Assembly: GCF_000698785.1 (NCBI RefSeq)
Contig: NZ_CP007536.1
Span: forward strand, 1,830,001 to 1,862,000
Reading direction: 5' to 3'
DNA: 32,000 bases
From: Nitrososphaera viennensis EN76
GTDB taxonomy: Archaea > Thermoproteota > Nitrososphaeria > Nitrososphaerales > Nitrososphaeraceae
A program made the translations under genes and the position numbers. Positions 13,500 through 14,879 of this stretch are shown piece after piece (the stretch's first letter is position 1; each line of letters begins with the position of its first letter). The notes beneath the pieces are model-generated. The model was not told the DNA's origin, searched no databases, and worked only from the letters and a program-made list of their open reading frames with translations.

Positions 13500-13513
13500 T
13501 TTCGACGTCGAAA
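13500..13513. promoter_or_regulatory. Perfect 14-bp palindrome TTTCGACGTCGAAA, copy 1 (candidate operator or parS-like site)
   Basis: Read directly. It is intergenic, 84 nt downstream of the CdtB-like stop. The same core recurs at 14864-14879. A TTTCGAC half-site lies at 13430-13436. Confidence 0.5.
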
Positions 13514-13596
13514 ATCGCGATATGGTTGTGGAGCTGAAACGCCGGACTAGAGAAAAATGCAGGAGGGTTCGGGCCTCCATAGGTTGCGTCCTTGCG

Positions 13597-14262
13597 CTAG
13601 AACTGGTAGACCACTGCCAAGTGATCCGACATCTGGAGGTTTATGACAGTGCCTGTTATAGCAGCGGCTCCAACCTCCACGAGGTAGTCATATTTCGCTT
13701 GAGGGTTCGTTGCAGGATACGTATTGCTATTTGGTGGACAAACCTGCCATGGTCCTGGGGGAAAGGTACCATCTGGAGGTCTGTTAAAATCGCCTGCCGC
13801 AAGCCAGTTTCCAATCACTGCGCCACTTATCGCATTAAGCAAGCCTGAAACGTCTGCACCACCGGGGCTTATTGCGTGGATTGTAAAGCAATAGTCACCA
13901 CCATAGTCGGCACCCAGAGCAGGCCTCCATACAGGGGCTGCTGCAGGATAAAGCAAGGCAGGATTGGCTGGCAGAACCTTGCTAACTACCGCCAAGTTGC
14001 ATCGATTGCCATTGGGATCCGCGGGATAGAAAAGTATGTAAGCGAATGGTCTAGTTGTGGTTCCACCCCAAGAATATAGTGAGAGGCCCACTATGCCGCC
14101 AAAATTATTCTGAAGGAGGTTGGCAGAGGCTGGAACGCTTCCACATTCCTGCAAGCAAAATACGTCAATGTTCAGCTGGACCATCATATTCTTGACTCCC
14201 TCGTTCCATTTGTTTTCTTGACTGTGGCTGCTGCCTTGCATGTTCCAAGTGGCGGCTATCAT
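13597..14262 (-). CDS. cdtB: CdtB-like DNase I-fold nuclease/phosphatase (EEP superfamily), homologue of cytolethal distending toxin subunit B, no signal peptide
   Basis: IAATWNMQGSSHSQENKWNEGV...DVFCLQECGSVPASA matches the CdtB N-terminal block ATWNLQGSS..ESKWN...D(I/V)L.VQEAGS.P.SA. YSWGGTTTRP...NRCNLAVVSK, FTIHAISPGGADV, AAGDFNRPP, KYDYL and MSDHLAVV line up with the CdtB catalytic Glu/His/Asp/Asn/Asp-His positions. An in-frame TAG lies 9 codons upstream of the ATG, so no leader peptide is possible. Confidence 0.85.
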   Translation of the reverse strand: MIAATWNMQGSSHSQENKWNEGVKNMMVQLNIDVFCLQECGSVPASANLLQNNFGGIVGLSLYSWGGTTTRPFAYILFYPADPNGNRCNLAVVSKVLPANPALLYPAAAPVWRPALGADYGGDYCFTIHAISPGGADVSGLLNAISGAVIGNWLAAGDFNRPPDGTFPPGPWQVCPPNSNTYPATNPQAKYDYLVEVGAAAITGTVINLQMSDHLAVVYQF

Positions 14263-14287
14263 CAGTTTCTTCTGTAAGAAGGTACTC

Positions 14288-14297
14288 TAAATAATAT
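14288..14297 (-). promoter_or_regulatory. TATA-like box (ATATTATTTA on the minus strand) upstream of the CdtB-like gene
   Basis: It lies 26-35 nt upstream of the ATG at 14262. This spacing fits an archaeal leaderless or short-leader promoter. Confidence 0.3.
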
Positions 14298-14453
14298 CTG
14301 ATAATCGCAATAGTTGCGCAGCTCGTTCTTGATGGTCGTCATGACTGTTGGTAATGACATACCACGTCATCATATCCAGTCACTCAAGAAAAATGAAAAG
14401 ATGGAGAGGAGCCTGTTTTCGTATACTTCATACATACGTACGAGCGCGTTTGG

Positions 14454-14699
14454 CTAGGCTACGCTATAGCTAAGGTGCTCTTTTCCTGCTCCTACTTGCT
14501 CGTTGTAGGCATCAAGTGTGGGGCTGACCGTATTTTCCACTTGTGTGACAGTGAGACCGGTCACTGTGATCTTGTACGGGTTGGCACTCCAGTTTGGTTG
14601 GTTCCACACTCCGCCCGCGCTTGTCTGCCAATCTTCAAGCCAAGTCTGTACTCTGATTGGAGATGGCAGATTGACTGCGGAGATGGTTAGGGTTGGCAT
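14454..14699 (-). CDS. Small Trp-rich hypothetical protein (81 aa) immediately upstream of the CdtB-like gene
   Basis: ATG-start ORF on the same strand as cdtB-like, 191 nt upstream of it. No recognisable family. Overlapping plus-strand ORFs (14475-14690, 14518-14859) look less protein-like. Confidence 0.45.
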   Translation of the reverse strand: MPTLTISAVNLPSPIRVQTWLEDWQTSAGGVWNQPNWSANPYKITVTGLTVTQVENTVSPTLDAYNEQVGAGKEHLSYSVA

Positions 14700-14863
14700 G
14701 ATACAGTTGTCACCTATGTCTGCAAACTTTTTTCCGAACTATTTATCGCTATTTGAGCGAGAATCTTCTTTTTTCTTTTTGCATGCGAACTTGTTCGAGC
14801 ATATCTTTCGACACTGTCGCTTTCGCCAACTGACAATTCGGTTGCATTTGTCTTCGTAGAATA

Positions 14864-14879
14864 ATTTCGACGTCGAAAT
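14864..14879. promoter_or_regulatory. Perfect 16-bp palindrome ATTTCGACGTCGAAAT, copy 2 (candidate parS-like site or operator)
   Basis: Read directly. It is 75 nt downstream of the ParB-like stop and 165 nt upstream of the 81-aa ORF start. A TTTCGAC half-site lies at 14806-14812. Confidence 0.5.

Follow-up and report, generated by a model that had tools for sequence, protein, structure and literature searches.

The subject of this report is a pair of identical palindromes in a 32,000-nucleotide stretch of Nitrososphaera viennensis EN76 (contig NZ_CP007536.1, positions 1,830,001 to 1,862,000; the whole 32-kb stretch is referred to below as the window), together with the gene for a ParB-like protein that lies beside them. 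The genes in this part of the window are on the minus strand and follow one another in the order histone-deacetylase-like gene, serine hydroxymethyltransferase (SHMT) gene, ParB-like gene, first palindrome (site A), a gene for an 81-aa protein, a nuclease gene of the Exo_endo_phos family, second palindrome (site B), a 229-aa gene and its 224-aa paralog (Table 1). The palindromes are spaced 1.36 kb apart and flank exactly the 81-aa and nuclease genes. Both copies are intergenic, as public records call no gene there. Comparison with related loci suggests that they are probably the cognate binding (loading) sites of the ParB-family protein that is encoded 75 nt away.

The window has two copies of the 14-bp palindrome TTTCGACGTCGAAA and no more, one at 13500-13513 and one at 14865-14878, and the latter extends to a 16-bp form, ATTTCGACGTCGAAAT, at 14864-14879. 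Together, the two copies make up a perfect 18-nt inverted repeat, which a repeat finder reports as AATATTTCGACGTCGAAA (13496-13513) and TTTCGACGTCGAAATATT (14865-14882). No further match to the 14-mer at up to two mismatches, or to the 16-mer at up to three, is present in the window; the mean for shuffled sequence is 0.11 matches. The window contains four perfect 14-bp palindromes versus 2.2 expected, and a 14-bp palindrome that occurs more than once was seen in 0 of 1000 dinucleotide-preserving shuffles. Site A lies 75 nt past the stop codon of the ParB-like gene, while site B lies 83 nt past that of the nuclease gene and 335 nt upstream of the 229-aa gene. The first-pass annotation of this DNA had reported two identical palindromes in intergenic positions around the 81-aa and cdtB-like genes, the second of them 75 nt past the ParB-like stop codon, and all of this is borne out. 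Its estimate of about 1e-4 for the chance occurrence of such a pair is arithmetically sound, and its view that chance is unlikely agrees with the shuffles.

Table 1. Sites, genes and conserved DNA around the two palindromes (window coordinates).
Feature	Coordinates	Strand	Description
ParB-like gene	14955..16001	-	348 aa; ParB N-terminal CTPase-fold domain, ParB-type helix-turn-helix (HTH), long helical C-terminal region
Site A	14856..14882		Core TTTCGACGTCGAAA at 14865-14878 with conserved flanks; minus-strand reading AATATTTCGACGTCGAAATTATTCT
Site B	13491..13520		Core at 13500-13513 with its own conserved flank; minus-strand reading TCGCGATTTTCGACGTCGAAATATTTTCTC
81-aa gene	14454..14699	-	First gene between the sites; no family match; part of the variable cargo
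Nuclease gene	13597..14262	-	221 aa, Exo_endo_phos (CdtB-like); second gene between the sites; variable cargo
229-aa gene	12475..13164	-	Family unassigned; downstream of site B; conserved TATA-like block about 25-45 nt before the ATG
224-aa tandem paralog of the 229-aa gene	11539-12213	-	
Second conserved block, GTCAGTTGGC (GTCAATTGGC in relatives)	14825..14834	-	About 30 nt downstream of site A on the gene strand

Several other features and readings of the same DNA were considered and set aside. The first-pass annotation had attached a TTTCGAC half-site to each palindrome. These 7-mers are indeed present at 13430 and 14806, but they are not conserved in alignments of the orthologous loci, and the six TTTCGAC 7-mers found in the window outside the palindromes are barely above the approximately four expected (four more lie inside the palindromes); the half-sites are not counted as part of the element on both grounds. 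Two small minus-strand open reading frames, 13359-13580 and 14739-14894, run across the palindromes with the palindrome in the same frame (read as STSK), and are uncalled in public records and unconserved. A reading of the palindrome as a core promoter, with CGAAA and TATTTT as an archaeal TFB recognition element (BRE) and TATA box, was set aside because the neighbouring genes have conserved TATA-like blocks of their own, located about 25-45 nt before their start codons and 130-300 nt from the palindromes, and because several of the paralog sites described below lie between convergent genes.

The databases hold three orthologs of the ParB-like gene, and the ortholog group thus has four members. 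The closest relative is that of Candidatus Nitrososphaera evergladensis SR1 (P0002, 90% identity, locus L011), and the others are P0003 (80%, L012) and P0004 (76%, L013). The palindrome, in the form AATATTTCGACATCGAAA, lies 58-79 nt after the stop codon of the ParB-like gene in all three orthologous loci, so that the conservation that the first-pass annotation had suggested looking for beside orthologous genes was found. A second copy is located 4.35 kb from site A in L011 and 0.97 kb from it in L012. All seven sites of the four loci match AATATTTCGACRTCGAAA in one or the other orientation. When the loci are aligned, 13 of the 14 core columns of site A and 20 of the 22 columns that make up the core with four flanking positions on either side are invariant, versus 13% of columns elsewhere in the intergenic DNA; at site B, 13 of 14 core columns are invariant versus 11% elsewhere.

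The genes around the sites vary between the relatives. The upstream neighbour of the ParB-like gene differs in all four loci, being SHMT in the window and a chitin-synthase-like glycosyltransferase, a luciferase-like oxidoreductase and an unknown gene in the others. The cargo between the sites is made up of the 81-aa and nuclease genes in the window, but in L012 and L013 the nuclease gene comes directly after site A and the 81-aa gene is absent, by a clean insertion or deletion. Since the nuclease orthologs of L012 and L013 occur without it, the 81-aa protein is not required as a partner or for immunity. In L012, the start of the 229-aa gene follows site B, as in the window (98% identity over 52 aa). 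The N. evergladensis locus carries an 89-aa homolog (75% identity to the 81-aa protein) and two unrelated large genes on the other strand, and the nuclease gene is absent. Site B and its flank are inverted in this locus, and the two copies point the same way. No gene other than the ParB-like gene recurs in all four loci. With a cargo that changes from relative to relative, this gene is the only constant partner of the palindromes, and since the genes bracketed by the sites are not the same in the relatives, what is conserved as a target is not the nuclease module itself.

The next relatives of the ParB-like protein, at about 41-47% identity, form a large clade. A palindrome of a closely similar kind, TTTCGGCGCCGAAA, is present in seven of seven distinct sister loci (L137, L138 and L140-L144), in one to three copies within about 3.3 kb of the gene, and in four of the seven a copy is located 1-107 nt after the stop codon. 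By chance, an exact 14-mer would be expected about 5e-5 times in a 12.8-kb locus. The TTTCG...CGAAA arms of the sister site are identical to those in the window, and the difference resides in the 4-bp centre, which is GCGC versus ACGT or ACAT (ACRT). TTCG-N4-CGAA occurs nowhere else in the window, in L011-L013 or in L137 and L138. With this linkage in 3/3 orthologs and 7/7 sister loci, the assignment of the palindrome to the neighbouring ParB-like protein, as first proposed from the window, gains strong comparative support.

The motif centre tracks the ParB clade, with ACRT in four of four loci and GCGC in seven of seven. N. evergladensis encodes members of both clades, and within its loci each clade is accompanied by its own site type and never by the other's, which is the pattern expected of paralogs with insulated specificities, like ParB and Noc in the Firmicutes. 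All seven ACRT-type sites and 11 of the 12 GCGC-type sites are intergenic, several of them between convergent genes, a placement that fits loading sites better than classical operators; paralog copies are also found upstream of genes or between divergent ones. The best explanation for these sequence patterns is that the subfamily would recognize TTTCG-N4-CGAAA, with an ACGT or ACAT centre for the ortholog group and a GCGC centre for the larger sister clade.

In three of the loci, the sister-clade genes adjoin genes of contractile injection systems (L137 6001-7719, L138 6001-7650 and L144 1416-5093). These loci come from N. evergladensis, a Nitrososphaera metagenome-assembled genome (MAG) and a third contig, respectively. 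The contractile-injection genes include a GPW_gp25 baseplate gene and, in L137, genes for eCIS_core proteins. In L137 and L138, the ParB-like gene heads the cluster and the GCGC palindrome is located between it and the first downstream gene.

The behaviour of the palindrome scan was checked on a canonical system. Only three relatives, all of them distant, came out of a metagenome search with the ParB protein, and two of these represent a canonical bacterial parAB operon. In the positive control loci L135 and L136, which have a parA-parB operon with GERR and GHAR motifs and a ParA gene, the same palindrome scan recovers a perfect TGTTTCACGTGAAACA 270 nt upstream of parA, inside a 24-bp palindrome (L135 8928-8943, L136 5563-5578). 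A scan of genome contigs with AATATTTCGACRTCGAAA gave at least 120 matches, mostly in unrelated bacteria and including a conserved Kribbella gene; among the matches listed, there is one extra Nitrososphaerales copy, on a MAG contig (L024). A motif search of viral contigs returned nine GCGC-type and 97 ACRT-type matches, none of them near a ParB-like gene, and these matches are chance or unrelated. The contigs L156 and L224 have two sites with a spacing that mimics that of the window and were rejected, as the spacing is actually that of a 72-nt phage inverted repeat. The repeats, which contain ATTTCGACGTCGAAAA, are located at 5638-5709 and 7135-7206 in L156 and at 2015-2086 and 3256-3327 in L224. 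The two contigs are variants of one low-GC virus, with flanks that are 99.9% identical and a 219-aa versus a 154-aa gene between the repeats.

The ParB-like protein is a member of the ParB/Spo0J/Noc/KorB superfamily by its domains and fold. It matches the Pfam families ParB_N (PF02195, 9.4e-22) and HTH_ParB (PF17762, 1.4e-18) and passes the general ParB partition model TIGR00180 with 139 bits against a cut-off of 58.45 bits. It fails the Noc model TIGR04285 (170.9 bits, cut-off 315 bits) and does not reach the cut-off of the KorB domain PF08535 (21.7 versus 22.3 bits). Among solved structures, it is closest to ParB, Spo0J and Noc chains in the PDB, at about 1e-32; KorB is found at 4e-13. An AlphaFold model has a predicted local distance difference test (pLDDT) score of 80-93 over residues 25-220. 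In Foldseek comparisons, the predicted structure superposes on the Caulobacter ParB-parS complex 6T1F with a target-normalised template modelling (TM) score of 0.83 and a root-mean-square deviation (RMSD) of 2.6 Å, on the DNA-binding domain of Noc bound to its Noc-binding site (NBS), 6Y93, with a target-normalised TM of 0.90 and an RMSD of 1.4 Å, and on the KorB-KorA complex 8QA9 with a target-normalised TM of 0.75. In the single-chain model, long helices are predicted at residues 260-347 (pLDDT about 80-88), following a disordered insert at 225-260; no Pfam match to the ParB C-terminal domain was found in the protein.

Bacterial ParB proteins bind cytidine triphosphate (CTP), and the roles of the nucleotide-binding residues have been described for Caulobacter ParB (PMC8367383). 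In an alignment with that protein, the equivalents of R60, S74, G79, R103, R104, N136 and R139 are kept, as the R in LLLRP (the R of the QPR box), S55, G60, R81, R82, N114 and R117. The hydrolysis residues, at positions 40 and 80, are replaced: the equivalent of Q58 is L, and the GERR motif has become GNRR. In Caulobacter ParB, E102A and Q58A each abolish CTP hydrolysis, and the E102A protein binds CTP and closes without hydrolysis, staying longer and moving further on DNA (PMC8367383). The Q to L replacement is found in the protein and its orthologs, while GNRR is subfamily-wide, being present in 112 of the 120 best homologs, with E at that position in none of the 120. AEEL is likewise present in 112 of these 120 where ParB has HAR(A)L. 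From the GERR to GNRR and Q to L changes, a slow- or non-hydrolysing and long-lived clamp is predicted, and the natural GNRR variant may, by analogy with the bacterial mutants, represent a long-lived, “clamp-locked” form.

A second feature that sets the protein apart is the lack of a ParA partner. The 32-kb window has no gene called as a ParA-type ATPase, nor have the 11 related loci, which include L011, L137, L138 and L140-L144. None of the 120 homologs has the ParA-binding motif (L|F|I)G[K|R]G(L|F|I), as defined in PMC12704722; the sequence in the window protein is LGSGI, which lacks the K or R. The members with source names come from Nitrososphaera and Candidatus Nitrosopolaris, and the named members of this orphan ParB subfamily are thus all Nitrososphaerales.

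The DNA-reading residues differ as well. The recognition helix of the protein is GKSSAYISKRIALLDLP, and the specificity positions 173/179/184/201 are S/R/D/S versus RTAG in ParB and QKKR in Noc (PMC7383237), so that a new DNA specificity is expected. N178 and R204 (Caulobacter numbering), which are conserved in ParB and Noc, are K and E here. Taken with the lack of ParA and of the ParA-binding motif, these residues indicate that the protein is not a canonical partition ParB.

The sites may be compared in the same way. The parS site is TGTTTCAC / GTGAAACA and the NBS is TATTTCCC / GGGAAATA, both with a spacing of 4 bp between TTTC and GAAA (PMC7383237). The window site is ATTTCGAC / GTCGAAAT and the sister-clade site is TTTTCGGC / GCCGAAAA, both with a spacing of 6 bp. 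The TTTC...GAAA arms are common to all four. The format clearly places the window site in the ParB/Noc site family, though as a variant of its own, which agrees with the changes in the recognition residues. The canonical parS (TGTTTCACGTGAAACA / TGTTNCACGTGAAACA) has no match in the window at up to three mismatches, the site present being TTTCG-ACGT-CGAAA. The parS-like format named in the first-pass annotation is supported, but the site is not parS itself, from which it differs in sequence and spacing.

Among known systems, ParB/Spo0J and parS share with the window the domain architecture and fold (ParB N-terminal CTPase fold and ParB HTH, with the predicted match to 6T1F), conserved CTP-binding residues, a palindrome of the 16-bp class with TTTC...GAAA arms and an ACGT centre, and sites at or next to the parB gene. 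The window protein differs in having no ParA and no ParA-binding motif, in its S/R/D/S residues, in K for N178, in SAAE for GHAR and GNRR for GERR, and in its archaeal host, and the window differs in having no canonical parS and an arm spacing of 6 rather than 4 bp. The Noc-NBS system of Firmicutes provides the precedent of a paralog pair with orthogonal sites in one genome. Its outer arms, TATTTC...GAAATA, are identical to those of sites A and B plus one flanking base, the predicted DNA-binding domain of the window protein superposes on the Noc-NBS complex 6Y93, and a KDKEKQ segment is shared. However, the window protein is below the Noc cut-off (171 versus 315 bits) and lacks the QKKR residues, the centre of its site differs in sequence and length, and its sites are gene-local, whereas NBS are scattered round the chromosome (PMC4331003). 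No membrane-targeting helix was noted in the window protein, although no evidence for one was looked for.

The best functional analogy is KorB and its OB sites on plasmid RK2 (as well as VirB and BisD), which are ParB-family CTP clamps that regulate transcription. In both, an orphan ParB-family protein is, or would be, used without a segregation role at these sites, and several palindromic sites are located from tens of nucleotides to a few kilobases from neighbouring promoters (0.13-4.4 kb here). The distances of 0.13-0.3 kb to the next promoters and 1-4.4 kb between paired sites were judged compatible with the reach of KorB, which slides up to 1.5 kb (PMC11790492). KorB is the more distant relative in sequence (PDB KorB at 4e-13, Pfam KorB domain below the cut-off). 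The window protein has no recognised KorA-like partner and has the catalytic glutamate replaced, and the archaeal transcription machinery (TBP, TFB) would offer different targets for promoter occlusion. Closer in host are the ParB-like genes of thaumarchaeal integrative-conjugative elements (ICEs; PMC6563490) and the “orphan ParBs” of a 2025 survey of the ParB-CTPase fold (PMC12704722), which are archaeal, standalone without ParA and carried on variable or acquired DNA. The ParB genes in those reports are paired with a TFIIB gene in conjugation modules, neither of which is present here, and the passages concerned give no cognate DNA site or GNRR signature.

The subfamily is best read as an orphan, Nitrososphaerales-specific group of ParB proteins that would act as local regulators rather than in segregation. 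By analogy with ParB, KorB, VirB and BisD, dimers would nucleate on the palindromes through the HTH domain. The N-terminal pocket would then bind a nucleotide, probably CTP, and the dimer would close into a clamp that occupies or slides over the DNA beside or between the sites, and thereby alters the expression of neighbouring genes. In the window, the genes affected would be the 81-aa and CdtB-like nuclease genes, which the sites enclose, and, past site B, the 229-aa gene. Since there is no ParA and no ParA-binding motif, the role is expected to be regulatory or architectural and not segregational. With the TATA-like blocks 130-300 nt from the palindromes, any transcriptional effect would take place at short distance and not through simple operator occlusion. 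Both directions of control have precedents in the superfamily: KorB slides up to 1.5 kb from its OB sites and silences promoters (PMC11790492), while BisD activates genes at a distance (PMC12409273). A more ambitious proposal joins these elements into a hydrolysis-deficient clamp family of the Nitrososphaerales with at least two orthogonal protein-site pairs (TTTCG-ACRT-CGAAA and TTTCG-GCGC-CGAAA), whose members would be local, long-lived silencers or insulators of toxin and contractile-injection operons; as a whole, this proposal is tentative and less likely than not.

The DNA around the sites shows other features. The second conserved block, at 14825-14834, is invariant or nearly so in four of four orthologous loci, while the surrounding DNA has diverged. 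It is near-palindromic, GTCA(A/G)TTGGC, and could serve as another site for protein binding or mark the region where a transcript starts. The nuclease matches Pfam PF03372 at 8e-9, and its best NCBIfam match is the CdtB family at 7e-35, below the cut-off of that model; the label “CdtB-like” given in the first-pass annotation is thus a fair one. This DNase I-fold nuclease, found here in an archaeon, carries WNMQG...LQECG motifs. The 224-aa and 229-aa paralogs are 70% identical and have no family match. A 94-nt stretch (11948-12041 and 12947-13040) is 100% identical between them, which suggests recent gene conversion. Between site B and the 229-aa gene, a weak translated similarity at 13349-13483 on the minus strand (tblastn E = 0.002, 45 aa, 56% identity) has as its target the middle of a 510-aa gene that follows site B in N. 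evergladensis. A gene remnant is a possible explanation, if one with such marginal support, and it would account for the length of DNA that separates site B from the 229-aa gene.

The window as a whole consists of three blocks of different GC content: 36% from 1 to about 9000-9300, 45-48% from there to 17000, where the palindromes are, and 55-60% from 17000 to 32000. The low-GC block is a glycan-synthesis cluster with glycosyltransferase, sulfotransferase and polysaccharide-deacetylase genes. Other genes in the window include GTP cyclohydrolase III and other riboflavin genes, cupredoxins and a HerA-like ATPase, a set in keeping with an archaeon. PADLOC models for defence systems found nothing relevant. 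The intermediate GC content and an upstream context that differs in every relative suggest that this is a variable, horizontally acquired region.

Plasmid partition sites are classically located directly after parB, and the palindromes could thus be true centromeres, the parS sites of an integrated or formerly extrachromosomal element, to which the ParB-like protein binds for segregation. The intermediate GC content and varying upstream context would be in line with this, as would the ParB-like genes reported in thaumarchaeal ICEs (PMC6563490). This explanation is unlikely, however: no ParA-type ATPase is called in the window or the 11 related loci, the ParA-binding motif is missing throughout the 120 subfamily members, no integrase, replication or conjugation genes are nearby, and the paralogs are found inside contractile-injection-system operons and not on plasmids. 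In addition, a survey found that archaea essentially lack chromosomal ParABS (PMC12704722). If the palindromes were recombination sites or terminal inverted repeats at the ends of a mobile or exchangeable cassette, this would account for the perfect 18-nt inverted repeat around a 1.36-kb, two-gene module, for the different content between the sites among relatives and for the inversion of site B and its flank in N. evergladensis. However, there is no transposase, integrase or recombinase in any of the loci, no target-site duplication was found at the palindrome flanks, and the 4 nt by which the inverted repeat exceeds the palindromes point away from the module. N. evergladensis has its copies as direct rather than inverted repeats, the paralog loci can have one or three copies rather than pairs, and the insertion or deletion of the 81-aa gene falls inside the bracket and not at a site boundary, all of which makes a cassette quite improbable.

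Palindromes of 14-16 bp are also of a typical operator size, and the sites might be operators of another transcription factor, encoded elsewhere, that simply travel along with the ParB-like gene. The single copy found in L024, without a ParB gene in view, would fit this idea, and the motif was counted in the window and related loci rather than genome-wide. Nevertheless, there is little probability in it, since no gene but the ParB-like one is shared by all the motif-bearing ortholog and sister loci and the motif centre switches exactly with the ParB clade. Sites that are 130-300 nt from TATA-like blocks, several of them between convergent genes, would also be unusual for an archaeal operator. 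A chance repeat, or RNA hairpins acting as terminators or processing sites instead of a DNA site, can be considered very improbable. Copy A does follow the 3' end of a gene, and palindromes can form hairpins, but the predicted RNA folding is weak (-3.6 to -8.1 kcal/mol, z-scores -0.2 to -1.4), there is no Rfam match, and some of the paralog copies are upstream of genes or between divergent genes; chance is opposed by the shuffles and by conservation of the motif in relatives.

Recognition of the palindromes by the ParB-like protein thus accounts best for the data, with several points weighing on the other side. The support for it is comparative-genomic throughout. The ortholog group has only four database members, three of which are closely related soil lineages, and the motif distribution covers the window and the relatives' loci. 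The extra copy of AATATTTCGACATCGAAA in L024 is located at 5930-5947, 86 nt past a BNR/sortilin-repeat gene; the 5.9 kb on its upstream side have no ParB-like gene and 355 nt of contig remain on the downstream side, so that this copy is either a distal B-type site or a counter-example. No residue-to-base code can be derived, as variation in the recognition helix of the GCGC clade leaves the site unchanged. With K and E at N178 and R204, the mode of DNA reading may differ from that in the solved complexes. Silencing or insulation of the nuclease module, as suggested in the first-pass annotation, is a hypothesis, and the regulatory outcome may be silencing, activation or none.

A ParB-family protein with palindromic cognate sites is an already known kind of system. 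For the archaeal subfamily, the two site variants, the GNRR signature and the association with toxin and injection-system genes, no description was found in the literature searched. A full-text literature search gave no paper with either palindrome and no paper linking ParB-like genes to archaeal contractile injection systems. Thaumarchaeal ParB-like genes appear in the literature only as ICE components paired with TFIIB (PMC6563490) or as an enriched COG (PMC9289680), and a 2025 survey of the ParB-CTPase fold describes archaeal orphan ParBs with HTH domains as “scattered”, with no sites given in the passages concerned (PMC12704722).

The CTP switches of the ParB family are an active field in which nearly all knowledge comes from bacteria and plasmids, and the archaeal orphan ParBs listed in a recent survey have no known DNA target or function. 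Through the present analysis, an archaeal orphan ParB subfamily gains two concrete predicted binding sites. The pair of sites represents a natural specificity-switch experiment, with the same arms, different 4-bp centres and the paralogs present in one genome, and GNRR is a natural variant of a catalytic motif whose equivalent bacterial mutant locks the clamp on DNA. The genomic company of the ParB-like genes, a CdtB-like nuclease in the window and contractile-injection-system operons for the sister clade, suggests the control of costly or dangerous functions and points to a role in controlling weaponry in abundant soil ammonia oxidisers. If the proposal of a Nitrososphaerales clamp family is true, gene control by a ParB-style sliding clamp would operate on the archaeal, eukaryote-like transcription machinery.

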